From: Ginglymostoma cirratum
Lineage: Eukaryota
Assembly: GCA_024137785.1 (NCBI GenBank)
Contig: JAHRHZ010000025.1
Coordinates: forward strand, 19,039,996 to 19,103,995
Direction: 5' to 3'
DNA length: 64,000 nucleotides
The position numbers and the translations under genes are program-made. Below, piece by piece: positions 2,991 through 61,954 of this stretch; positions within the stretch are counted from its first letter, which is position 1; every line of letters starts with the position of its first letter. Below the pieces are notes generated by a model. The model did no database searches, was not told the DNA's origin, and saw only the letters and a list, made by a program, of their open reading frames with translations.

Positions 2991-4601
2991 TATTTTAACA
3001 GGGCTTAATACAATTCACCATAAATGAAGAGTGCATATATCTTACAATACTTTAATCTGAAGATGGCAGATATCAGCAATGTTAAATGAAATGTTCATCT
3101 ACTTTTGGAACCCCGTGTCAATGTAAAGCAGTCCTGAGCCAAATCCAAGTCTTTGGAGGGTAAACTGCTCAACAGCAGATTTGAAATCCCATGCCACTCC
3201 AGACCTGCAGTAAGAGTGCGACAAGCAGCCTAGCAACCTGATAGTTTGAAATACACACTCTTGCCATGAATCAAGTACAGCAAGTCAAATTTTTCATTCT
3301 CTCTGTCTTGTTCTGTAATCTCAGAAAGGCACTCATGCAAGCTGACATGACAATTTGTTTCTTCTCAACAGGCCGTGTATGAGTTGATGACTAAGTTACT
3401 GATGAAACCCCAATTTGGACTGAATTTTGTGTAATGTTTGCACGGTAGATCTGTGCTGGACAAGGAACGTGTTAAAGCTGCCCACTTATATTTAATGTAT
3501 ACAGATAGCTACCGCTGAGAGGCATTTGTATTAGATTAGATATCAAGAGGTCAAAGATTAAAGCACTAACCTATTACATGACCAGAAACTCATATATCTC
3601 TTCTAAAAATGGCATCTGATCACTGTTCAACGTCAGTCATATATCAGGAAAACAGGCTTTGCTGTAAAAATGTCATGAATCAAGTCTGTATACTTCTCTT
3701 TATGTTTCTTTCCTCAAGCATCCTTGGAGGAAACACAGTCAGCTCTCACAGGCTGCATCATCGGAATCTCCACTTGAAATCTGCTTCAAAATTTCTGGAA
3801 TTACCATAGCACAACCAGCATTTGATAATGAGAAATTCATCTGTTTTAGGTGTTGGTTGAGAGATAAATCTTGACCAGGACACATGGAAGAACTCTGTTC
3901 TCTTCGTTGAAATGGCGCTATGGGATCTTTTACACGCACCTGTTACGACGTTTTATTATGTCATATTTGAAATGTCAACTTGTTTGTTTCTAAAAATGGT
4001 GCAGGTCAAAACTAACCTGAACTTAATATAGAAACTTAGGCCAGTCTTTGCTCCTGTTCAAGTTTCTCCATGTATTTCTTTGATATCCTGTTTGATTTGG
4101 CTTTGGTTACCCTGTTTGGCTCTATCTCTTGTTTTTTTTTCTTACATCTTCATGCCTCTTTTATCTGGTTTAGAGTTCTCTCAGTCACCCTGAATAGCTT
4201 CTGTTCCTTTGTGACTGAATTGCAATTAGATCTGTATTGATAGCTCAAGGTTGTTCCATAAATGTGATGTAACATGAACCAGGTAACATTCATAGTGCTG
4301 TTAGATTTCTCTTGGTCTATTTTAGAGCATTCTGTTCCAGAAGCTTGCAAGTTTTTTTTGACATGTTACATAAAAGAACAAAGTACTCCCTGCGTGCTTG
4401 AATGGTTCTTCAAAATTACTCATCCAAAGTGACTTTGTACAGTTATCCAACCTCCATTTTCTAAAAGAAACTGTTTTCACGGTGACTTTGAAGATCAATT
4501 TTCAGTGCACTTCTCTTCAAGTGGATGATCCGTACCAGTGTTGATTGGTGCAAATTTTGTTTTTCAGGTTTTTGCACTCAGTCAGCATGAAGTAAACCAG
4601 A

Positions 4602-5760
4602 ATAAAAACCAAAAGATTTGTGGATGATGTAAATCAGAAACAAAAACAGAAATTGTTGGAAAAGTAATTGCTGGAAAAGGTCTGGCAGCATCTGTGGAGA
4701 GAAATCAAAATTAACATTTCAGGTCCAGTGACCCTTCCTCAGAAACAATAGGTGGGAATCATAAGACCATAAGACATAGGAGTGGAAGTGAGGCTATTCG
4801 GCCCATCGAGTCCACTCGCCATTTAATCATGGCTGATGGGCATTTCAACTCCACTTACCCGCACTCTTCCCATAGCCCTTGATTCCTTGCGATATCAAGA
4901 ATTTATCAATCTCTGCCTTGAAGACATTCAACGTCCCGGCCTCCACTGCGCTCCGTGGCAATGAATTCCACAGGCCCACCACTCTCTGGCTGAAGAAATG
5001 TCTCCTCATTTCCGTTCTAAATTGACCCCCTCTAATTCTAAGGCTGTGCCCACGGGTCCTAGTATCCCCACCTAACGGAAACAACTTCCCAGCGTCCACC
5101 CTTTCTAAGCCATGCATTATCTTGTAAGTTTCTATTAGATCTCCCCTCAACCTTCTAAACAAGAATGAATACAATCCCAGGATCCTCAGCCGTTCATCGT
5201 ATGTTAGGCCTACCATTCCAGGGATCATCCGTGTGAATCTCCGCTGGACACACTCCAGTGCCAGTATGTCCTTCCTGTGGTGTGGGGCCCAAAATTGGAC
5301 ACAGTATTCTAAATGGGGCCTAACTAGAGCTTTATAAAGTCTCAGAAGCACATCGCTGCTTTTATATTCCAACGCTCTTGAGATAAATGACAACATTCTA
5401 TTTGTTTTCTTAATCACAGACTCAACCTGCAAGTTAACCTTTAGAGAATCCTGTACTAGCACTCCCAGATCCCTTTGTACTTCGGCTTTATGAATTTTCT
5501 CACCGTTCAGAAAATAGTCCATGCTCGTATTCCTTTTTTTTGTTTTTTTTTTGGTGCCCAACCTATCCTCACCTCTACCCCCACCTATCATTTACTCCTT
5601 ACCCTCTCCCCTCACCCTATCTTCTGCATATAAACTGAAATTTTCCTCGTTCTCATCAGTTCTAAGGAAGGGTGACTTGACCTGAAATGTTAAATCTGAT
5701 TTCTCTCCACAGATGCTGCCAGACCTGCCGATCTTTTCCAGCAATTTCTTTCTTTTGTTT
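4602..5760. mobile_element. Penelope-like element remnant (family B) with inverted pLTR arms, interrupted by a CR1 insertion
   Basis: 4640-4746 is the inverted complement of ~5657-5760. Degenerate TSD gaagtaaaccag/gaagtaatcag. Hammerhead-like core on the minus strand at 4709-4746. Confidence 0.8.
4760..5531 (-). mobile_element. Young 5'-truncated CR1 LINE nested in the PLE remnant
   Basis: Uninterrupted ORF (RDLGVLVQDSLK, LYKALVRPHLEYCVQFWAP, RRLRGDLIETYKIM, TRGHSLRI, FFSQRVVGLWNSLP). 3' tail cataagaccataagacatagg. Confidence 0.96.
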
Positions 5761-15630: not shown

Positions 15631-15842
15631 AAGGACATTATTATAATAGTTAACACTGGAGATAACAAAAAAAAGGTTCAATGTGGATCAGCTGAGGCAA
15701 AAATGGAGATGCACAAGGTACAGAAATGAAAGCAGGCAGTCTTTGTATGGAGGAAATATGGGGGAAGAATCTCAATTCACAGCCAACTAGAGTAAAGAGT
15801 TGTCAACAGTCTCGATGCAAGTTTAACTGATAGATTTTGTAT

Positions 15843-16507
15843 CAGAGATAAAAGGTACTGCAGATGCTGGAGAACCCAAGACAACAAGGTGTGGGGCTGG
15901 ATGAACACAGCAGGCCAAGCAGCATCATAGGAGCAGGAAAGCTTGCCGTTTCGGGCCTAGACCCTTCCTTTTTGCAGTTGGAGATGAAGGGGAGGTCGAG
16001 GGAGGGTAGGAGGCCTTGGGGTGGTGTCCAGGAGGAGNNNNNNNNNNNNNNNNNNNNNNNNNNNNNNNNNNNNNNNNNNNNNNNNNNNNNNNNNNNNNNN
16101 NNNNNNNNNNNNNNNNNNNNNNNNNNNNNNNNNNNNNNNNNNNNNNNNNNNNNNNNNNNNNNNNNNNNNNNNNNNNNNNNNNNNNNNNNNNNNNNNNNNN
16201 NNNNNNNNNNNNNNNNNNNNNNNNNNNNNNNNNNNNNNNNNNNNNNNNNNNNNNNNNNNNNNNNNNNNNNNNNNNNNNNNNNNNNNNNNNNNNNNNNNNN
16301 NNNNNNNNNNNNNNNNNNNNNNNNNNNNNNNNNNNNNNNNNNNNNNNNNNNNNNNNNNNNNNNNNNNNNNNNNNNNNNNNNNNNNNNNNNNNNNNNNNNN
16401 NNNNNNNNNNNNNNNNNNNNNNNNNNNNNNNNNNNNNCAAGCTTTCCTGCTCCTATGATGCTGCTTGGCCTGCTGTGTTCATCCAGCCCCACACCTTGTT
16501 GTCTCTG
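15843..16507 (-). mobile_element. PLE (family A) with tail plus inverted pLTR arms around a 400-N gap
   Basis: 15879-15945 is inverted at 16438-16505. 15-bp TSD taactgatagatttt at 15824-15838 and 16508-16522. Confidence 0.88.
16038..16437. other. Assembly gap, 400 N
   Basis: Run of N. Confidence 1.
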
Positions 16508-17195
16508 TAACTGATAGATTTTAATTGCTATTACAAACCAACAACTTCATCAATTCTTGAAAATGAGACACAGAGATAGAAAGTAAAATTAGATGACCCC
16601 TATTAGGCACTGCATTAAATAGACTAGCATGGAAAATTTTAATAGTAAGCCAAACATCTTGCATTGTTTTAAGAAACTGACATGGAATGCTGTAAACTCA
16701 GACCACAAGTGAACTTGCATTGCAAAATAAAATGCTGCTAATGATGAAAAGCATCATCAGTTAAGTGGCTGGAAGAATCTGGTGCTAAAGTGGCTGGTTA
16801 CCAAAAACAATAATATTTACCACACTGAAGAACATTCACTTTACTTCTGAGAACCCAGGTGAGTTATAATCTAATTTGCTTGACTGTATTGGGTTTGCTA
16901 ATTTGCTTTTTTTTTAAATAAACTCACTGTTTGTCTAAAGGCACACACTTTTCATTACCAGGCAGAAGAAAAAAAGACATGTTTCTCTGAAAGTACAGTT
17001 TTTACATGGTTAGTGATCAACAGAAGCAAAAGATTTGCCAAATTCTTCAAATAAAAACTTCTGCTTGACTTCCTAAAGAACATAACATCTTCATGTACTA
17101 AGGATTTTTGAAGATGCTCTACAACCAAGGAATCATTTTTGAGGTATAGTCATACCAATGCAATTACAGGCACATCTAGCAGCTAAATTTAGTCT

Positions 17196-19655: not shown

Positions 19656-20620
19656 AATTTTGACGTGGTAGTATGATGTTAAGTGATGATTACAATGATT
19701 TCAAATTTTATGAAGTGACTAGTACCAGTTTATTTATTACATTTTGCTGATTGTTTTAATTCTTCATAATTTAAGGATAGCTGCTCTGATGCAGTGCAAA
19801 AATTACACTGGAGAGCAATTTTTAGCATGTCTGTACTCCTTTGGACATATCACGTTAGTTCTCTCTGATGTAAACAAGTTCCATTTAATTTTACTGGTAC
19901 TGTTTTCTTGTACGATGCATTACATTTTCACATTAAATGTTGTTACACTTTCACAAGAAATTCCCTCAGTGGTATCATAATTGATATTGTTTACACAAAA
20001 GTATAGAATACAAGAGAGCCTCTATGAGAATATACAGGGCGTCCTCTCCTTTATGTATCTACAAAATGTTACATTTGAGAACATATTCTGTGCCCTTTAT
20101 GTTTATTGATAATAATTTTCAGGTTGCCATTTTCATCCTACTTACAATTTCTCGGCATATTGGGAACCATTGGATATGATTATCTCCTTTATTCTTGCTG
20201 TGCTCAATCCCAAAAGGAAATAAATTGATGCAGCATTAACTTCTTTATTTGGTAATCTATTCTGCAAATAGAACCATGATAGTGTTAAATTATTTTGATC
20301 TAGTCCTACAAAAGGCTTGTTAATTTTAAACTTGTCTTCCCATGATGGTATTGCTAGTAAAACTTTGTATTAGATATAGTCTTGAAACATCAAAGCTTTC
20401 TATTCAATTGCTTTAGATGCAGGATGCTTTGTATGGTTAATACATTTACGTATTCAAATGACTTTTTAACTGCACAAACCTGTTAGTCTTTGCACAGGCC
20501 ACTTCAAAAACCTATGATTTACGGGGAGGAGGGGAAGGTAATCATAATTTTAAAATATTACTCCGTACAATTGCAGCTAAGTAATTAAAATAGCAGTGAA
20601 CTGAAGAGTGATGAAATCAC

Positions 20621-20718
20621 GAGATAACGAGGTGTAGAGCTGGATGAACACGGCAGGCCAAGCAGCATCAGAGGAGCAGGAAAGCTGATGTTTCGGGCCT
20701 AGACCCTTCTTCAAAAAA
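20621..20718 (-). mobile_element. Single PLE family-A pLTR arm
   Basis: gagataacgaggtgtagagctggatgaacac...tttcgggcctagacccttcttca; hammerhead core mutated (TTGAAGA). Confidence 0.85.
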
Positions 20719-21130: not shown

Positions 21131-21639
21131 TGCTATAACTATTCTGCAACATATATGCAAGTTGTTATGATATATTGTGACATTGAGGTTTGTTGAATAA
21201 AACTTGACTGCATGATTACCCTAAACCTATTTGAACTACAGCAATGTGTATGCCTTGATGTTAATCTGTAACTGTGGAATACATGAAAGTATATTCCATC
21301 CTCTCCAATCAAAGACCTCAAATTCCTTCATCGTTACATCATCACAGGCAAATTAAGATCGTATCCCTTCCACATCGTATGTTGCATTCATAAATCAGCA
21401 CAGTATCTATAATCATTTATAGAGAAGGAATTTGTTAGTTCCTGAAGTGTAAGATTTTAAATCCACCAGCACTACTATCAGGTCATGAATTGAGCTGCCA
21501 ATCAAACATTGCGATCAGGTATCATCTGGCCATTCTGTGTACAGTGACCTTGTAAATTGACTGAAGGCTGCTTCCATTTGGTATTTGAATGAAATTCTAA
21601 CCGTGCTGCTTTCGAAATGTTGGCTGTACTCGTATTTTA

Positions 21640-23900
21640 TAATTACTGGCAGACTGGGTGGGGTGGAGTCGAAGTACTGTTCTAATCGACCGCACATCGT
21701 AATCAACTATAGATTAGATCCGTGATCCAGAAACTTAACTAGGTTAATATTTGCAGCTCCAATAAGGCGTACATTTTACATATGCGTGTGTACAAGCGAG
21801 AGAGCTTTCAACTCAGGAAGGAACCACAAGCTAGAACACAAACACACGTATTTCACTTGGTGCCAAAAGTACAGTCACTATTTGGAAAGTTCAAAAAAAT
21901 AGCATTAGTCTCTCCCTCCATGGTTCCTTAGCACTTAGTTATCACGTGTAGTTCGTTACTGCAGTAAAACATCGAACACTATCCAGTTTGAAGAAAATCT
22001 ACTGAAACCCTCGATCGACAGTGAACAGCCGTGCTTGGAATCCAAAGGCTCCATTACTTGTCCTAACAACAGTTATTTGATAGTCTTGATCACATTCAAG
22101 ACAACGAAAAGACTATTAAAGCAGAGTTACGGGGAAAGTCCAGGTTCTGTTTTTGTTTTATTCGCAAAAATATTCACGATTGTGGGTGCTTATTGGTTCC
22201 AATTTCCTCCCAGCCGTGTGAGGATTTTGAATTGCCTGCCTGGTGCAGTAATCCCAGGTTCCGTTCTTTGTCTCTCCCTTTGCTCCATGTATTGGACTTG
22301 GCAACGCCGCCAGAATGCAAATACATGGTATTGTTGTGGAGCGGGCCACTCGCTCCAGACAGGAGGGGTGGCGGCTGGGCTAGACAACAGAAGTCGGCAG
22401 AAGACACTCCTTTTTAGAAAGCGGTACGGACAAGCGGTCACGATTTACACCAAATAAACTCTCACTGCAACCAAGAATGGACGCCTTCTTAAATCTTAAT
22501 AGATGCAGTCGACATTGACCGTGCCTCCTTCGCCCGGCGCCGCAATGGTAAAGGCAAAGTCGCTGTCTTGGTACCCGGTACAATTGTGTCACTGGTGAAA
22601 CCTTGCACAGAATGACGCGGTGTGGATGTGTGAATTACAAGGGAATTCCTGTCTTCTGACTTGATTTGAACCGAGCACCTTTTGCAGCTCACAAATATTG
22701 CTTTATTTGCCTTTATCGCTTCGTTTTCGTTCCGGTAAGCGGCACGATACTTATTTTTGCTTAAAATGCAATTATTGGATGATAAACTTGCATGAATTGT
22801 ATTCAGATTGTCAGATTTAGGAAGCAGTTGTCACATTTTTATTTCTTCTCCTTCTGCTTAAATCTCAACGAAGACAATACCCTCTCTATCATAGCTCCCT
22901 GTTCCAGCAACCACACATAACCGACCGGTTTATTTCAATCCAATTGCTGTCAGTTTCACGAATGCAGGACAGCGGTTCCCGGCTCGGATTAATTCAGAAG
23001 CGAGTCAGCAAATTGCAATTAAATATCACGGGGCTAACTGGTGCCAAGCAGAGAAATTGCGATGAAGTAATTGTAGAAATGCAGGCATGTTTATTTAAAC
23101 AAAAAAGGCTTTGTGGCTGGAGTTTAAAAAATCGTACCTCCTCCCCACCCTCCAACAGATTTGTGTTATGTTACGTGGAATAGCTCCAACTAAAATTTTG
23201 AGTTCTCCTTAGTGACTGTATGGAAATCACATGCATTTGTACATCATGTGATTTAAGTTATTCCCCCGCACCCCGAGCGAAACGTGTGGTGCTGTGTTAA
23301 ATGGTAGGTTGGAGAGAGAGGGAGGAAAAAAAAAACCGCGTCAGGATATATTTTTGTCTTGGCGTAAAGGGTTTTTCCAGATCTTAAGTGAAGTTGTCTC
23401 GTCTGAGTAGTCCTATTATTTGACCATTTTATTTCGTGATGTTGTAATTGTGCATAGCACCGTGTTTAATTTTAAATTGACTTTTTAAAGCAATGTGCTT
23501 ACGGTACAGCAACTGAAAACGACCTGATCCCACACCTGACCGCGACTGCCTTTTTATTGCGATATATCGGAGTTATTTTCTTCCTATAATTGGCCTCGCC
23601 ACTGCACACACTCGAACTGTAAATATTGGTTCATTCTACATTTTCCAGCTGTTTTTCGAAACTCAAACTTCCCCTAAAAGATTTTTCTTTTAAATATTTG
23701 TCTTCGTATATGATCGTTATTGGCTCTTCAGGCCAACAATAATTGGGATTTTCCTGGGAGGCTGCTTTCCTGGAAGAATCTGTCATTCAATTTCCCATTT
23801 AAAAGAAATATTCCGTTTGGGCATGTTGCCGCCTGGGCGGATTAGCTCTTGAAGCGAATACACCACAGCCTGTTTTAAAGGTAATAATGTTACACTATTA
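21640..23900. promoter_or_regulatory. CpG-rich promoter region (CpG island-like)
   Basis: Sharp rise in CpG density against a CpG-depleted background and no recognisable repeats. E-box CACGTG at 21943-21948, ATTGG/CCAAT boxes ~22192-22295, GC-rich tract ~22340-22380. Confidence 0.8.
22340..22734 (+). other. Probable non-coding first exon (5' UTR) of an unidentified gene; start approximate
   Basis: Consensus donor CCG|GTAAGC at 22734/22735 in the CpG core. The ATG-initiated frames I traced all close before the donor. Confidence 0.6.
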
Positions 23901-40165: not shown

Positions 40166-40961
40166 AGAATTAATTTTATTAAAAATGGAGAATGTAGTGT
40201 TATAGCAGTTGAAGCTAAGGTCACAGCTGTAACTACAGGCAATGAATTTTCCCAGTGACTGACTGAGAATGGAGACAAAGCACTCAACTTGTTCCAGGAC
40301 TGAATCTCTTGAAATCCTGTTGCAAATTTAGAAGCTTGTTGTTGGATTCCTTGCTAATTTGTTCATTGACCTAAACAGTTATGAAACTGCCTGATTTGTT
40401 TTTTTTTAAACTTCCTTTTACTTCAGCAATTGAAGATCCTTAACTGTCCATTTGTTGGATTTAGTGTCTTATGATCTGTTTTCATGAGCCAGGAATGTTG
40501 AGTTTACAGTGGGACTGTGGCAGCTGGGTATGCTATCTATTATTCTAAGAAACATTAGAGCCTCTCTCACTGCAAGCCAAAATGGCTGAATTCTGTATTA
40601 GTGCTGTTTTCATGCTGACAAATCTTGACTTTGGGATTCTTGTATTTTTAAGTGGAAATTCTGGGGAATGGAGGTTTACAAATTGTCTGCCTCTTTCAAA
40701 TTCTGATCTTCTTCCTAATGCTCTCCTGGAGGCCAGTAGAGACACTTTTTTTGTTTTTCCCCATGTATAACCAATTGATGGCTCAATGCTATGGGATGTT
40801 AGAGGACAGACAGTACAGTTTGTGTTGTTTTTAAACTTGTTCTTTTTGGAAATGTGTGCAACACTGGAAAGGAAGGCTTTGGTGACCACATTATATAACT
40901 GGAGGCTTGTGTACGAATGGCAATTTCACTTCCCTAAAGCACGTTAATGAATCAGTGACAA

Positions 40962-41240
40962 TCTTCCCTACCTACACTCACCTTTACTGGCTCCATCCCC
41001 GCCTCTTCGACTTGTCTGCCTCCTCTCCACCTATCCTCTCCTCTATCCATCCTCTATCCGCCTCCCCCTCTCTCCCTATTTATTTCAGAACCCTCTTCCC
41101 CTCCCCCATTTCTGATGAAGGGTTTAGGCCCGAAACGTCAAGTTTTCCTGCTCCTATGATGCTGCTTGACCTGCTGTGTTCATCCAGCCCCATGCTTGTT
41201 ATCTCTGATTCTCCAGCATCTGCAGTACCTTTTATCTCTG
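40962..41240 (+). mobile_element. Young PLE family-A 3' end (pyrimidine-rich leader, pLTR, tail)
   Basis: 41113-41238 is nearly identical to the reverse complement of 42699-42821. Confidence 0.9.
41108..41143 (+). ncRNA. Minimal type-I hammerhead ribozyme motif (PLE-type)
   Basis: attt-CTGATGA(41112-18)-a-GGG-tttagg-CCC-GAAA-cg-TC-aagt. Stem I attt/aagt with one G-U pair; palindromic ACGT at stem III; predicted cut after C41139. Confidence 0.8.
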
Positions 41241-41379
41241 AACATGTTTCATGCTTTTTTTTTTCTAATCGACTAGCTCCAAAATACTTTGACATTTAAA
41301 CAGACCCCTGAGATTAAATGGATTGACAGCAAGGAAGAGTTGCAGTCACACTCCAAACAACTGGACATCTCAAAACACT

Positions 41380-41740
41380 TGGCAGTTAATGGTAGCCAAT
41401 TTGTAAGCAACCTGCTGCCACAAGTGGCAGATGATTGTGTGTGTGTGTGTGCGCGTGCGCGCGGTTGGTTTTGTTTCCATGATAGTGATTGTGGAATAAA
41501 TATTATCCAAGGTGTCAGGATAATACCATTGCTCTTCTAAATTGTGCTACGGGACCTTTTATATCAAACAGAGAGCAGATGGGGCCTTGTCTTAACATCT
41601 CATCTAAAAGCCAATATCTGTATCGTTGCAGCACCTTCCACGATGTTGATGCATTAGCTGTAATTTTATGTTCTCTGATCCTGGAATGGGATATGTACCC
41701 ACAAGCTTCTGACCCTCCAGCAAAGGCATTGACTAAAACA
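41380..41740 (-). mobile_element. Deu-type SINE containing a (TG)n/(CG)n tract
   Basis: Similar to 2640-2990. Confidence 0.55.
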
Positions 41741-42821
41741 GGAGGCTGTTTTGGCATTATGCTTGGATTGCAAAAGAACTGGACTTTGGGTTGCTTAGTC
41801 TGTTTTAGCCTTTTGCTTTCTTGCATTCCTATACTTGAAATTTAAATTTTATTTTACTAATCAGCAGATATAATTGAAATGAAGGCATGGCAGTAATAAA
41901 ACAACAAAAGGAGTCCAGTTTAATGTGGATGGCAGAGGAGGCTTTTAAAAATGTGATTTCTGGTATCCTGCTGTGTAGGGAGAATGGCTGGCTGCCTCGA
42001 GCAGATCGTGTGAATGATGACCTTTTTAAGGTAGTTTCAATGAACTAGGAAACTCCAGTTTGGTTGCACAGTTTATAGTTAACAGTCCCTTATCAGGACC
42101 CAAATGCCCTGACTTCTAATTTCTCTCACTATAAAAGAAATGCATATTGTGAAAGTCTGAGTTGTATTTTGAAGTAAGCAGCATGATGGTTGTGCAAGAA
42201 GGAATTTTTTATCTTGGGGACTAATTTTCTTTGGTGACCCACCGCCCCCCCCCCCCCCCAAGGGTGATGGCAAACTGCCTGAGTGCATGGGATGGAACGT
42301 CACATGGGATGACTTCATGAAACAAACTTGACAGCTTTTTCTTATCTTGTAGCCAAATCTAGTTAATGCCTTTTTTTTTGAAGAGTGAACAAAAGTGGGA
42401 ATCTGATCTGACTTATTCCTGGCGGTTGCCAAAAACACTTTGCTGTCTAATCCAATCCAATTCACTTTGAATTAATCAAGATGGGATTTGCCCGTGACGG
42501 TCAATATTTGGCCAGCAAGTGGTGATTTTTAATTGAGACTCCAATAATTATCCTGAAGAGAGAATTTCTAGATTTTATTAAATTGTTAGTGGGATACTAC
42601 TTGAGAAATTTAACTGCAATTTATATTACTTTGGTTGTTTAATGGTAAATTCAGAAATTGGCATGTTTCCATCAGATTTACATGAGCACTTCTATATAAG
42701 AGATAAAAGGTACTGCAGATGCTGGAGAATCCGAGATAACAAGCATGGGGCTGGATGAACACAGCAGGTCAAGCAGCATCATAGGAGCAGGAAAACTTGA
42801 CGTTTCGGGCCGAAACCCTTC

Positions 42822-43221
42822 NNNNNNNNNNNNNNNNNNNNNNNNNNNNNNNNNNNNNNNNNNNNNNNNNNNNNNNNNNNNNNNNNNNNNNNNNNNNNNN
42901 NNNNNNNNNNNNNNNNNNNNNNNNNNNNNNNNNNNNNNNNNNNNNNNNNNNNNNNNNNNNNNNNNNNNNNNNNNNNNNNNNNNNNNNNNNNNNNNNNNNN
43001 NNNNNNNNNNNNNNNNNNNNNNNNNNNNNNNNNNNNNNNNNNNNNNNNNNNNNNNNNNNNNNNNNNNNNNNNNNNNNNNNNNNNNNNNNNNNNNNNNNNN
43101 NNNNNNNNNNNNNNNNNNNNNNNNNNNNNNNNNNNNNNNNNNNNNNNNNNNNNNNNNNNNNNNNNNNNNNNNNNNNNNNNNNNNNNNNNNNNNNNNNNNN
43201 NNNNNNNNNNNNNNNNNNNNN
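42822..43221. other. Assembly gap, 400 N
   Basis: Run of N. Confidence 1.
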
Positions 43222-43228
43222 CTTCATC

Positions 43229-43264
43229 ATTTCTGATGAAGGGTTTCGGCCCGAAACGTCAAGT
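43229..43264 (+). ncRNA. Minimal type-I hammerhead ribozyme motif (PLE-type)
   Basis: attt-CTGATGA(43233-39)-a-GGG-tttcgg-CCC-GAAA-cg-TC-aagt; predicted cut after C43260. Confidence 0.8.
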
Positions 43265-43928
43265 TTTCCTGCTCCTATGATGCTGCTTGACCTGCTGTGT
43301 TCATCCAGCCCCATGCTTGTTATCTCAGCACTTCTATATACTTGACTGCCATTGTTTCTTTGTTCATGCATTTTTGCTTTTATGCAGGCAAATTCATTTG
43401 TGTTCCTAAAGGCTGCAACAGTGTTGACCACTTGTGAATGGTGGTTATGTGATATTGGTAGTATTGCTATGTAGTGATGGAAAGGTTTGCCACGTTCATT
43501 GTTGAATGCATCTATCATGATTAGAGTGCATGACTCTGTCGTTGTAACACTGTGCTTTTCCACAGCTGAAGGAGTATCGCCTTGTTCATGGTCATGGAGG
43601 GCAATGAGAGCCAAGAATTTTCCCTGCAGCTCTGAGTCACTCCTGGCCACTTGTAATAATGTGGTCTTGGGTGGGGAGGAATAGAGATTTTGCCTTTTGA
43701 TTATCCAGTGGACTTTTTTTCCAAGATACTTTTTTATTTTGTTTTCTCAAGCTTTCCCCCCACTCATATGTACTCTTCCTTAATGGAAGGAATTGCCCGC
43801 AGCTCAACACCATCCAGATTTGGCATCGCATCTTCTAATTTAAACATGGACTCCTTCCACTGGTATACTGTGCCCATCTACAAGATGCACTGCAGAAACT
43901 CTGAAAGGTTTCTTCAACAGCCCCTCCT

Positions 43929-44834: not shown

Positions 44835-45990
44835 TTTTTTTGCTATTCTTTCATGGGATATGGATGTCACTGGCAAGGTTGAAGTTTGTTAATCCCTAAT
44901 CGCCTTTGAGAACATAATGGTGAGCCATTGGTTCAAGGCAATGTAATTCATCTGGTACAAGTTAACCTACAGCGCTGTTAGGAGGAGTTCCAGTACTTTG
45001 ACCCAATGATGGACAAAGAACAGTGACTACAGTTCAAAGTCAAGATGCCTCAGAGGGTAACTTTGCCCTTTACCTAGTGCCCCGTGACCTTAACCACCTA
45101 GAAGTGTTTGGAAGTTGCTGTCAAAGGAGGGTTCATGAGCTGCTGCAGTGCATCTTGTAGCCATCAGTGTAGCCTGTTGCCACTGAGCTGGTGGTGGATG
45201 GAGTGAATCTTTGTAATAAAACAAAGAACCGTGGATGCTGGAAATCTGAAACAAAAATAAATTGCTGGAGAAACTCAGCATGTCTAGCAACACCTGCGGT
45301 GAGAAAGCAGTTTTGATAAAGGGTCACTAGACCTGAAAATCTGACTGATTCTGTTTTCTCTTAACAGATGCTACCAGACCGACTGAGTTTCTCCAGCAGT
45401 TTCTGTTTTTGACTGAATCTTTACATTGAAGGATGGGGTATTGATTAAGTGTGCTATATTGACGTGGGTGATATTTTATACTGAGGCTTCAGTATTGGAG
45501 CCACACCCATCCAAGCAACTTGACAGTCTTCCATCACCTTCCTGGCTTGGATTTAGATGATGGACAGGTTAGGTGGGGAGTTACACAGCACAGAATTCCT
45601 AGCCTCTGACCTGCTCTTACAGCCACAAATTTGATAAGGCTAGCCCGGTTCAGGTTTTAGTCCGTGGCAACTAATAGAATGTTGATGGTGTTTCAGCAAT
45701 GACAATGCCATTGAATGTCAAGGGGATGTGATTAGATCCTGCCTTGTTGGCGATGGTCCTTGTCTGGAAGCTGTTTGGCACAAATTATGTTTCCACTTAT
45801 GGGTCTAGACCCAAATGTTATCCAGGTTTTACATGGACTCTGGCTTCAATAACTGAGGAATCCCTGGTTCTGAGCTAGGAGGCCTGAGTTCAAGTCCAAG
45901 CTACTCCAGTGGTGGGCAGTAACACTGCTAAACAAGTTGATTGGAAAATATCTCAGGCATTGCACTGGCGCTGAACATGATGCAATCATC
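44835..45990 (-). mobile_element. Degenerate non-LTR retrotransposon (same family as 39560) with nested PLE and SINE
   Basis: gctgctgcagtgcatcttgtag is the reverse complement of ctacaagatgcacagcag at ~39845. Confidence 0.7.
45216..45410. mobile_element. Fold-back PLE family-B mini-element
   Basis: Inverted arms (tgctggagaaactcag / ctgagtttctccagca); degenerate TSD gagtgaatctttgta / gactgaatctttaca. Confidence 0.82.
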
Positions 45991-53014: not shown

Positions 53015-53102
53015 AGATAACAAGCATGGGGCTGGATGAACACAGCAGGTCAAGCAGCATCATAGGAGCAGGAAAACTTGACGTTTCGGGCCTAAACCCT
53101 TC
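53015..53102 (-). mobile_element. Single young PLE family-A arm
   Basis: Reverse complement of 41117-41204; stops at acccttc inside the hammerhead motif. Confidence 0.9.
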
Positions 53103-53876
53103 TAACTGGTTCCGTTCCTCACTTAAAATGTTGCACTCCAGAGCTCTGCGTTCACCTTTGCTCTCAACTGTTCCCTGGCCATCAAATGCCCCAAACTCTC
53201 CATTATCTGGAGACATTGCTAATTGTTGCTTGCATGGCAAGGCCATATCAGGTGACCCCAATCAAACAGGTGTTCATGTGTACCAGGAATTACGAAAAGC
53301 ACGGCTACATGGGTTAAAAAGTATATTCCAGGAAATAATGAAAATACGTTTGAGATATTGGAGAGGCAAAATTGAAAGGTGGCCAGGAGGAGAAGTATAG
53401 AAAAGGTAAAGAAGAGTAAAGGCAAACAGGAGGATGGAGATGACAAAGGCTCGGAAATGAGAGGTTAAAATCAGCAAGCGGAAAGAACAAACTGAGTGAG
53501 TTTTGCAGGAATGTCAAAGGAGCTGACAGAAAATAAGATTTTGAAAATGATAGCACTGGGGGATGTCTTTCGGATGAGGAAAAGACTATTATGCAATTCT
53601 GCAATGTCACTGCTGAATAACAAACACTGCTGCATAGAAGGATTTACTTTTTTGGTAGCCATTGTTATTCTTCAGGGATTGTCAAGGAGTTATTATAGTG
53701 ACTAAAATGTATTCTTTAACTGGTGATTGCTACTTGCCGACAACTGGTGTCCCAGTAATTGCACTGCAAACATTTTAAAATCCAGATGAACTGCATCTGT
53801 GGAAATTGCATTAATTTGTTGGAACTTAATATGTAACTCTAGAAGTTGAGGCCTTGCAGAGTAACTATCTCAAATC

Positions 53877-54079
53877 GAGATAACAAGGTGTAGAGCTGGA
53901 TGAACACAGGCCAAGCAGCAGCATAGGAGCAGGAAAGGTTGATGTTTCGGGCCTAGACCCTTCATCCCGAAACGTCAAGCTTTCCTGCTCCTATGCTGCT
54001 GCTTGGCCTGCTGTGTTCATCCAGCTCCACATCTTGTTATCTCTGATTCTCCAGCATCTGCAGTACCTATTATCTCTCA
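53877..54079 (+). mobile_element. Complete ~200-bp fold-back PLE family-A mini-element
   Basis: 14-bp TSD aactatctcaaatc at 53863-53876 and 54080-54093; inverted arms; tail on the right. Confidence 0.92.
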
Positions 54080-54939
54080 AACTATCTCAAATCATTTGCT
54101 GCTGCAGAGAGAATGTGGGAATAAGTTTGTCGTCATTCTTTCACAGTTGAAGATGCAAGAGCTAATGTTATCAACATGTCCATCACTGACACTAAAGCTG
54201 TGCTATTATCACAGCCACACTTAGCTGCTCATCTTTTACAAATTCTTCATAGATTTGTTGCAAGTTTTTTTTAAAGTCTACAATGCCTGTATTGCCATTA
54301 TAGTTCTTACTCTGCAAACTCTGACCTCTGCTCTTATACAAAGTCCAGACACTTGGGTGAGCTGTTAGAATGTTCATGCTGACAATAGAAGGACTACTTG
54401 ATGACAGGTAGTATACTGTATTAAGGGATGGATGAAAGAGAAACACAATAGAGTGAAAGAAAAATATGTCGGCATAGTCGCTTCTTTGTTTCACTGGCAA
54501 CCTTTTTTATCCAACTTCCACCTTTCATAGATTAGACCCAGTCGATGTAAAGATGGAAAGAGTCTAATCTTGGAGCATTTAAGTTCAGACAGAGCAAATT
54601 TTAAACGTGCCGAGTAACACATGAATCTGAGTGAAGGCAGGTTGCATTTATCTCCTGAATTATTTGGATACTTTTCATCACTCAAGAATCTTCTAAGTTG
54701 TATTTGGAACAAAGATGAAACGTGGGGATGGAAGCTAATTGCTGGTGCTTGCAGATAAGAGTGCGAAGGTATAGGAACACAGCAGGCCAGGTAGCATCAG
54801 AGGAACAGGAAAGTTGATGTTTCGGTTGGACCCTTCTTTCAATAACACAAACTTGTCTCTTTAATGCGTCTTTTTAACTTAAGTATTCCATGGGTCTTCG
54901 CAGGAACTAGTTAAAGTTTACCTAGAGATAGTTGCTGAG

Positions 54940-59627: not shown

Positions 59628-59799
59628 AGACAACAGTGCGGAGCTGGAGCTCCATAGCAGGCCAGGCAGCATCAGAGGAGCAGGAAAGCTGACGTTTCGG
59701 GTCGGGAGCCTTCTGAAGAAGCATCAACTTTCCTGCTCCTCTGATGCTGCCTGGCCTGCTGTGTTATTTCTGACTCCAGCATCTGCAGATCTTGCTACC
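59628..59799 (+). mobile_element. Fold-back PLE family-A-related mini-element
   Basis: agcaggccaggcagcatcagaggagcaggaaag is inverted to ctttcctgctcctctgatgctgcctggcctgct. TSD tcagtttccatatg / tcagtttccgtgtg. Confidence 0.88.
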
Positions 59800-60542: not shown

Positions 60543-61954
60543 ACTTTCAAATAAGCAGAAAATATTTTGGCAATTTGTGGAAAGGTGATACCGAAATGCA
60601 AAGTGAAACTTCTTTAAAAGAATAATGTGATTAGGCTTGGGCCTTCTGTGTTACGTGATATTTTCAAACTAAGGTCACAGAGTTGACAAACTAATACCTT
60701 GCTGTTTGCTTTGAAGTGGACTCTAGCATTCAGGTTATGTATAGGATCTAAACAAAAAGCCGAAGAACTGTGGATGCTGGAAAATAGAAATTGCTGGAGA
60801 AACTCAGCAGGTCTGGCAGTATCTGTGAAGAGAAAGCTGAGTTAACAGTTCAGGCCCACTGGTCCTTCGGTACCTTCATCCACAGATGTTGCTAGAGCTG
60901 CTGAGATTTCGGAGCAATTTTTCTGTTTCTGTAGAGAATCTATTTCAGTATAACTGTTTGCCAAGAATCTTGGAACGGTGAATCACTAAATACATCTCAA
61001 CATTTTTATATATCTTTTTGAAAATACCTTTTCTCCCCCCTGCCAAGTGCAAATAGCTTTATACTGCAAGAGCACATAGTTGACAAGTTAGAGCATATTC
61101 CCCTGCTGGTTTCACTATCAGTGAATGTGTATTGCATGCACTGAACTAAACTGCTACTTCTGCCATAAGGCATCCATGAAATGACCTGATTGAATGAAAT
61201 TGAAATTTGTGGGAATTAACTATTTACTTGTTTTAGCATTGTGGAATTTGATCAGAGACTTTTCTTTTCTGCTTAATGACCTGGCAGCTAGATGAATGAT
61301 TGACTTCTGTTATGTTAAATTTCTGTCCATATAAGTGTTTTATTATGTTTAAATATTGTTGTTTGTCAAGCAACACTTGACCCAACTGATTATGGGTCCA
61401 AGTAAGACAGCGGCTTTGACTTATTGTTTTATTAAAAGGTCATTTTTGGAATGTGGATGTTGCTGTATGGCCAGCATTTTTTTCTTTGGCTCCTCTCTAA
61501 CTGCCTTTGAGAAGCTGCTGGTGGTGATAGGCTTCAGTCTTGAATCACCATAGCCTCTTCGTAGGTGGACCCACCATCGCATTCGGGCTACCCAAGATTT
61601 TGACCCAGTGACAGTGAAGGAACAATGATAACATCCTGGCTTGGAAAGATGTAGTGTGAATTCGAGAGGAGCTTGTAAATGGTGGCATTCCCATGTATTT
61701 GTTGACTTTGTCCTTCTGGATGATGATGATTTGTGGGCTAGGAAGATGTTGTCTGGATCTTTGGTGAACTTCTGCTCCGTATCTTGTAGGTAGTATACAC
61801 TGCTGCTTTGAATGTGACCTTTACTTAGTTTGAAAATATCACGTAACACAGTAAGCCCAAGCCTAATCACATTATTCTTTTAAAGAAGTTTCACTTTGCA
61901 TTTCGGTATCACCTTTCCACAAATTGCCAAAATATTTTCTGCTTATTTGAAAGT
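60543..61954. repeat. Inverted duplication of ~137 bp: 60543-60679 vs 61813-61954
   Basis: Compared base by base: identical except 2 mismatches and one 5-nt indel. Confidence 0.97.
60750..60930. mobile_element. Fold-back PLE family-B mini-element
   Basis: agaaattgctggagaaactcagcagg / ctgctgagatttcggagcaattttt. Confidence 0.78.

Follow-up and report, generated by a model that had tools for sequence, protein, structure and literature searches.

Two Penelope-like hammerhead fragments in intron 1 of a PKI gene of Ginglymostoma cirratum are predicted to be inactive passengers

Among the closest described systems are the minimal hammerhead ribozymes of metazoan Penelope-like elements (PLEs). According to the available portions of Cervera and de la Pena (2014; PMC4209133), single minimal hammerheads do not cleave and dimers have low activity, and pairs on opposite strands, 100-700 bp apart, had already been noted. 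Cleavage of dimers was reported by Lunse et al. (2017), as related in the accessible part of the review PMC6765202. In an anole PLE, the hammerhead was cleaved only in the presence of the protein made by the element, and insertion did not need cleavage (PMC11167929). PLEs typically show an inverted 5' copy, a tail on one side only and difficulties in assembly (PMC8557442, PMC3846280). Here, we analyzed two such hammerheads in a 64,000-nucleotide stretch of the Ginglymostoma cirratum genome (termed the window, to which positions refer unless another stretch is named). We consider it very probable that they belong to two PLE pseudo-LTR fragments that entered intron 1 of a PKI gene as separate insertions, and that both are inactive passengers as predicted from folding.

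Hammerhead 1 (41108-41143) and hammerhead 2 (43229-43264) both lie on the plus strand. Direct inspection of the sequence found the core CTGATGA at 41112 and at 43233, with an extra A after A9, the segment GAAA-CG-TC, and the palindrome ACGT in place of stem III. Stem II of both cores is GGG/CCC, with 4 bp including a U-G pair, and the loops are UUAG and UUCG. Stem I comprises 4 bp (ATTT/AAGT; 41108-41111 with 41140-41143 in hammerhead 1), one of which is a U-G pair. Cleavage is predicted after 41139 (41139/41140) in hammerhead 1 and after 43260 (43260/43261) in hammerhead 2. Both copies thus show the features of minimal type-I hammerheads of PLEs, namely CUGANGA / GAAA / UH, G10.1-C11.1, the extra base after A9, no helix III, and a palindromic 15.1-16.1 stretch, which is ACGU. 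The original prediction had claimed two full minimal cores with a 4-bp stem I and a palindromic ACGT, and all these parts are present as read. It had placed the cores ~2 kb apart; the distance as assembled is 2,121 bases, 400 of them N, and the real distance is probably ~1.7 kb.

The suggested check against type-I hammerhead models gave a divided answer. The Rfam hammerhead covariance models had no match at the gathering score within the window, and none to E 10 in 40900-43400. A minimal-hammerhead descriptor matched here, and it gave 23 matches in 76 random 10-kb stretches of the same genome (760 kb, of which 231 kb are N, leaving 529 kb), versus 0 in the reversed control; therefore, the motif is real and above chance. 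In 12 hand-picked copies, 85% of the helix cells are paired, a value equalled by 50 of 500 shuffles and hence not clearly above them. Helix I is 77% paired and helix II 93%, with U-G/U-A swaps in both.

The 29-nt core has 54,965 exact copies in the 4.36-Gb genome, compared to 0 for the control. Copy 1, which carries hammerhead 1, spans 40966-41242 on the plus strand and is a 5'-truncated 3' end of the element, consisting of a pyrimidine-rich pseudo-LTR, the hammerhead and the tail. It shares 98-100% identity over ~275-280 bases with dispersed copies on many contigs, as judged from the 40 top-scoring candidates out of 1,236. Elsewhere in the genome, longer sister copies continue upstream of the same pseudo-LTR into a frame encoding a reverse transcriptase (RT) and a GIY-YIG endonuclease. 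Pfam RVT_1 was detected in the sister stretch L042 (E 1.7e-7) and GIY-YIG, above the cut-off, in L041 and L044; a single 465-residue frame of L041 holds both the RT motif YIDD and GIY-YIG. The frames of L041, L042 and L044 overlap and are near-identical, and each possesses a C-x4-C-x2-C linker that fits the CX2-5CxxC RT-EN linker defining Neptune and Nematis. The longest frames observed measure 388-483 residues. No relative of the element's protein was found by PDB sequence search. Copies that run past the tail are partial tandems (1,021 exact matches) and reach a likely start codon ~70 bases beyond the tail start; none of 30 such loci held a full-length copy. Together with 5' truncation, the inverted 5' copy, the one-sided tail and the TSD, these are hallmarks of endonuclease-positive PLEs. 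By its sequence, the family belongs to the endonuclease-positive PLEs, and the linker motif points to the clade Neptune or Nematis. This bears out the earlier assignment of the cores, with their extra A and palindromic stem III, to Penelope-type pLTRs, as the sister copies carry RT and GIY-YIG. All 11 core bases are retained in 21 of 28 young copies, so that the intact cores reflect youth.

An older related repeat is also present in the window, with pieces at 4678-4744/5660-5726, 45198-45409 and 60760-60868, including inverted pairs; its minus-strand core at 4742 is hammerhead-like but decayed. Two 131-base inverted arms at 60543-60673 and 61824-61954, 98% complementary and 1,150 bases apart, are unrelated to the PLE pseudo-LTR.

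No TSD was found around copy 1. The second insertion is bracketed by a 14-bp TSD, with a left copy at 42685-42698 and a right copy at 43327-43340. It begins with the antisense arm on the minus strand, which ends in a 33-base tail. The original prediction had located this arm at 42733-42821; it is present, and its true extent is 42699-42821 (123 nt). A 400-N assembly gap follows (42822-43221), located where the two arms of the inverted repeat meet and likely not real sequence. The plus-strand half, copy 2, occupies 43222-43326, where the inversion junction (43222-43228) is succeeded by a tail-less pseudo-LTR piece that begins at the hammerhead 5' edge and stops 33 bases earlier than the tailed half. 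The arm matches copy 1 over 123 nt at 98% and copy 2 over 89 nt at 100%. Because the TSD brackets both halves, the arm and copy 2 read as a single head-to-head insertion (42699-43326). Just 3' of it, at 43567-43670, a splice-acceptor-like stretch is followed by an open frame, which has no Pfam match.

The 400-N gap is likely an artefact: its flanks overlap by 4 bases, the right flank already contains the inversion junction and opens with the reverse complement of the core, which continues the left arm, and the same sequence recurs on both sides of same-sized gaps in four other stretches (L048, L050, L051 and L052). The arm would then abut hammerhead 2 in a hairpin of ~93 bp, a closure that is deduced from the flanks rather than read. 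Alternatively, the gap might hide real element sequence, possibly including a minus-strand hammerhead, in which case insertion 2 would be a longer inverted structure instead of a tight hairpin. Inverted insertions of 2-4 kb do exist in the family, and the overlap here is only 4 bases; nevertheless, the continuation of the left arm into the right flank and the repeated flanks at the four similar gaps make this improbable. The alternative is purely structural and is compatible with the passenger reading, since the forced dimer described below is disfavored by +69 kcal/mol even with the gap left as N. Long PLE insertions of this inverted type, with one arm tailed and the other not, were observed at L041:4428-8309, L042:5878-8446 and L043:4233-6436.

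The arrangement is generic for the element family, because head-to-head pairs recur in random stretches (14 among 76 matches) and because intron 1 contains 16 family fragments, 8 sense and 8 antisense. In 10 of the 14 pairs exactly one arm is tailed, and in none of them are two. Among the first 100 cores listed, 16 head-to-head pairs were found within 2.6 kb and 3 same-strand pairs within 2.5 kb; independent placement alone is expected to yield ~870 same-strand pairs genome-wide. The same head-to-head design appears twice more in the window, at 15842-16507 with a 15-bp TSD and a second 400-N gap, and at 53873-54080 with a 14-bp TSD and without a gap. No locus-specific sequence, as looked for in a CPEB3-like domestication, was found, the identity to other genomic copies being 100% over 280 bases. 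Head-to-tail units each carrying a hammerhead, which characterize retrozymes, are absent between the two cores, where unique intron sequence and the inverted arm lie. A further head-to-head stub of the same family occupies 59636-59790, and solo truncated pieces with incomplete cores lie on the minus strand at 20615-20717, 53015-53102 and 54775-54825. In another stretch, a FYVE zinc-finger exon (L046:5814-6428; PF01363, E 2e-17) is located ~1 kb from a palindromic PLE stub.

The host gene encodes a kinase inhibitor (PKI). Its coding exon (L058:5989-6306; PF02827, E 3e-18) is situated 56 kb beyond the window and has 100% identity to proteins of sharks and rays that bear the names PKI beta or alpha-like. 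The non-coding exon 1a spans 21740-22734 on the plus strand (5' limit approximate), with the donor CCG|GTAAGC at 22734/22735; it is covered by RNA contigs of X1 over 21740-22736 and of X3 over 22362-22736. Splicing of exon 1a to the PKI coding exon was seen in 5 raw reads of X24 and in contigs of X1 and X3. An alternative exon 1b (23327-23880, plus strand; donor AAG|GTAATA at 23880/23881) is represented by one contig only, a 583-nt contig of X1 that lies on 23327-23882 and on the PKI coding exon. Intron 1 extends from 22735 to 64000 and on to contig position 19160089, with GT..AG ends, and measures 97,360 bases as assembled, of which 10,400 are N. The earlier proposal that the cores are intronic and sense to a gene starting at ~22.3 kb is therefore borne out, as exon 1 is spliced across both of them into the PKI exon. 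Five descriptor matches fall in intron 1, four of them sense (one without stem I), which are too few to test a bias; a third intact sense core lies beyond the window at window coordinate 94036. Cores of the same intron other than hammerheads 1 and 2 were recorded at L054:8999-9127, L056:1-91 and L057:6015-6213, one being antisense, one intact sense and one sense without stem I.

Several other candidates around this gene were examined. Twelve candidate exons from a strict splice-site scan were not confirmed, and the scan missed the real exon; a candidate exon ending in ATG, with its donor near 22548, was rejected, since the reads place the donor at 22734. Pfam analysis of the 148 plus-strand ORFs of the window from 21.5 kb on gave no credible match, apart from a weak DASH_Ask1 hit below the cut-off. 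The exon 1 region at 22288-22734 is long and non-coding and has several upstream ATGs, and PKI has two alternative first exons. Upstream of exon 1a, reads opposite to PKI at 21500-22163 and 16958-17149 (minus) suggest a divergent transcript. A minus-strand ORF upstream of PKI has a weak match to a TFIIS helical-bundle (Med26) domain, below the cut-off (E 0.0014), and no PDB match.

The genomic copies were examined for a footprint of cleavage. Nested exact counts over the whole genome gave 89,729 copies of the sequence from the cut site on, of which 87,062 (97.0%) extend two bases across; the adjacent four bases, taken as a control, are retained in 89.1% of copies. No excess of copy ends was found at the cleavage site, with 3% lost over 2 bases in these counts; therefore, uncleaved RNA was the source of the integrated copies. 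At the 5' edge of stem I, copy numbers drop from 52,053 to 38,350 to 30,622 over four bases, a loss of 41%, which is ~30% above the control rate, part of which may be T-run variation at junctions. Ten of 23 usable copies that run into the ORF reach the hammerhead 5' edge, and 6 of these 10 stop there; in the random stretches, ends beside N or stretch edges were dropped before the 5'-end count, and 62 of 76 were kept. Moreover, 800 RNA reads diverge at 41109, and copy 2 itself starts at the hammerhead 5' edge. The pile-up suggests that the element RNA likely begins at the hammerhead, the 5' edge of which lies in what we take to be an initiator-like context. Two other origins of the pile-up were rejected: insertion into older copies at ATTT, as insertion 2 lacks the upstream part of the pseudo-LTR and its TSD is host sequence; and a spliced 5' exon, as there is neither an AG before the edge nor shared upstream sequence. 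The pile-up was not found in the PLE literature texts consulted, and Fig. S2 of PMC11167929, other supplements or Repbase/Dfam may show it.

The motif is covered by abundant family RNA in X24, with ~3,000-5,000 reads for each direction. Reads of the repeat are equally frequent in the two directions, compared to 6:1 for the PKI exon, which is consistent with passive read-through; unique intron depth in X24 is near zero, and the repeat reads are family-wide. An A>G difference at 41169 in RNA was rejected as editing, being a DNA subfamily variant.

Insertion 2 could have arisen by priming on both strands, a model taken from another species' enzyme. The element endonuclease would nick both target strands, 14 bases apart, as the anole enzyme does in vitro; each nick would serve as primer for reverse transcription, which would begin at one or the other of the two start sites on either side of the tail; and both cDNAs would run to near the RNA 5' end at the hammerhead 5' edge before being joined head to head. 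Such junctions were read as self-priming by Arkhipova et al. (2013; PMC3846280).

The predicted folds speak against activity, keeping in mind that these energies are nearest-neighbour predictions that ignore tertiary core contacts and proteins. A single core is predicted to adopt a non-ribozyme hairpin at -9.3 kcal/mol, and the isolated active dimer reaches -5.1 kcal/mol, whereas a pair of misfolded monomers reaches -18.6. When the 2.1-kb region is folded with a closed gap, the arm pairs with 89 bases of copy 2 and with 33 bases of the copy 1 tail, which places hammerhead 2 inside the predicted hairpin. Forcing the active dimer costs +72 kcal/mol relative to the minimum fold with the gap closed, +69 with 400 N, and +35 with the arm removed, so that the two-core dimer is predicted to be disfavored and the idea that one pre-mRNA supplies an active self-cleaving dimer found no support. 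The original prediction had also proposed that the arm could sequester either copy as a switch. Either pairing is indeed possible, the two states being predicted to lie 0-6.5 kcal/mol apart; however, each leaves only one hammerhead free whereas the dimer needs both, and hence both arm states are predicted to be off. During transcription, hammerhead 1 would be free for ~1.6 kb until the arm is made, and once more when the arm has folded on copy 2, so that it might meet a partner in trans. Being transcribed just before hammerhead 2, the arm would form a duplex of ~93 bp with copy 2, or else it would pair with copy 1. Only one hammerhead would be free in each of these states, and since a minimal hammerhead has no stem III without a partner, the intron is predicted to be spliced out uncut. 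The published cleavage tests agree in direction with these folding predictions.

An alternative with a small chance of being right is that hammerhead 1 is sometimes cut in trans with the help of the element's protein, so that an active element would reduce PKI output; the partner could be element RNA, a different transcript, or the third sense core, which lies 50 kb further downstream. Its core is intact and in sense orientation, it is predicted to be free while the arm folds on copy 2, and the family RNA that might serve as partner is plentiful, as given above. The protein-assisted cleavage of a PLE hammerhead in vitro, described in the available sections of PMC11167929, and the depletion of Xenopus retrozymes from introns, stated in the accessible part of bioRxiv 10.64898/2026.07.22.740005, also lean this way. 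Against it, the dimer is predicted to be unfavorable even in isolation, the fragments in intron 1 have no strand bias, and the genomic copies lack a cleavage footprint. Sites with many read starts or ends were not found in X24, a weak indication given its poly(A) library and family-wide reads. The spliced PKI mRNA, seen in 5 reads and 2 contigs, is compatible with cleavage of some transcripts. Extended to the genome, it seems very unlikely that the protein of an active element helps tens of thousands of intact sense intronic hammerheads to pair in trans and cut pre-mRNA; if true, this would amount to a transposon-protein-dependent attenuation of host genes genome-wide, PKI included. Should sense cores cut host introns, a new cost of PLE activity would follow.

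An intramolecular dimer of both cores that cuts the intron and is switched by the antisense arm is hardly credible: the two intact sense cores are separated by ~1.7-2.1 kb, the arm has two pairings of similar energy, and mouse Cpeb3 mRNA is tuned by an intronic ribozyme (PMC10919898), but one core is paired in both arm states with the dimer predicted at +69 to +72 kcal/mol, the arm belongs to the same insertion as copy 2, the layout recurs throughout the genome, and the copies are near-identical to family members and therefore too young to show selection.

As two of ~55,000 intact cores, the hammerheads give the locus itself little weight, and the family is more useful. Its copy number is high enough to read the insertion mechanism from counts, and these counts support, from the side of the genome, the in vitro finding that PLE insertion uses uncleaved RNA. 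An RNA start at the hammerhead, in addition to priming at the 5' tail copy, suggests how stubs of 100-130 bases may form; this would explain the solo and opposite-strand minimal hammerheads littering animal genomes.

Similar to the metazoan PLE hammerheads of PMC4209133, both cores have no helix III, a palindromic 15.2-16.2 stretch, an extra base between 9 and 10.1, G10.1-C11.1 and a short helix I, and such hammerheads occur mostly solo in truncated copies. They differ in the elasmobranch host, in a helix II of only 4 bp, and in copy number, with 54,965 exact cores for one subfamily group compared to ~4,000 in coelacanth and ~9,000 in Xenopus. Like the CPEB3 ribozyme (PMC10919898; bioRxiv 2022.09.22.508989), the locus presents a self-cleaving motif in sense orientation within an intron of a regulatory gene; however, CPEB3 is HDV-like, conserved and self-sufficient (PMC10919898), whereas here young, multi-copy transposon pieces would need a partner. 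Non-LTR retrozymes (bioRxiv 10.64898/2026.07.22.740005) are likewise non-coding PLE-derived units with type-I hammerheads, but they form head-to-tail tandem arrays, compared to two independent insertions, one of them head-to-head, at this locus. The Anolis Poseidon element PAc (Frangieh et al. 2024, PMC11167929) has two start sites bracketing the tail, corresponding to the two 3'-end classes here, and uses unprocessed RNA as template, matching the absent cleavage footprint. In contrast, the PAc ORF starts inside the hammerhead, whereas the likely start codon here lies ~70 bases past the tail start, and the linker here has a Zn-finger-like motif. A further comparison is with PLEs of the Neptune/Nematis type, which share the order of RT then GIY-YIG, the CX2-5CxxC linker, 5' truncation, a 30-40-base tail on one end and assembly gaps (PMC8557442, PMC3846280), as well as partial tandems, the inverted 5' copy and the TSD (Craig et al. 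2021; Arkhipova et al. 2013). Compared to these elements, both arms of the insertion described here are only ~100-130 bases long and extend from at or near the hammerhead 5' edge.
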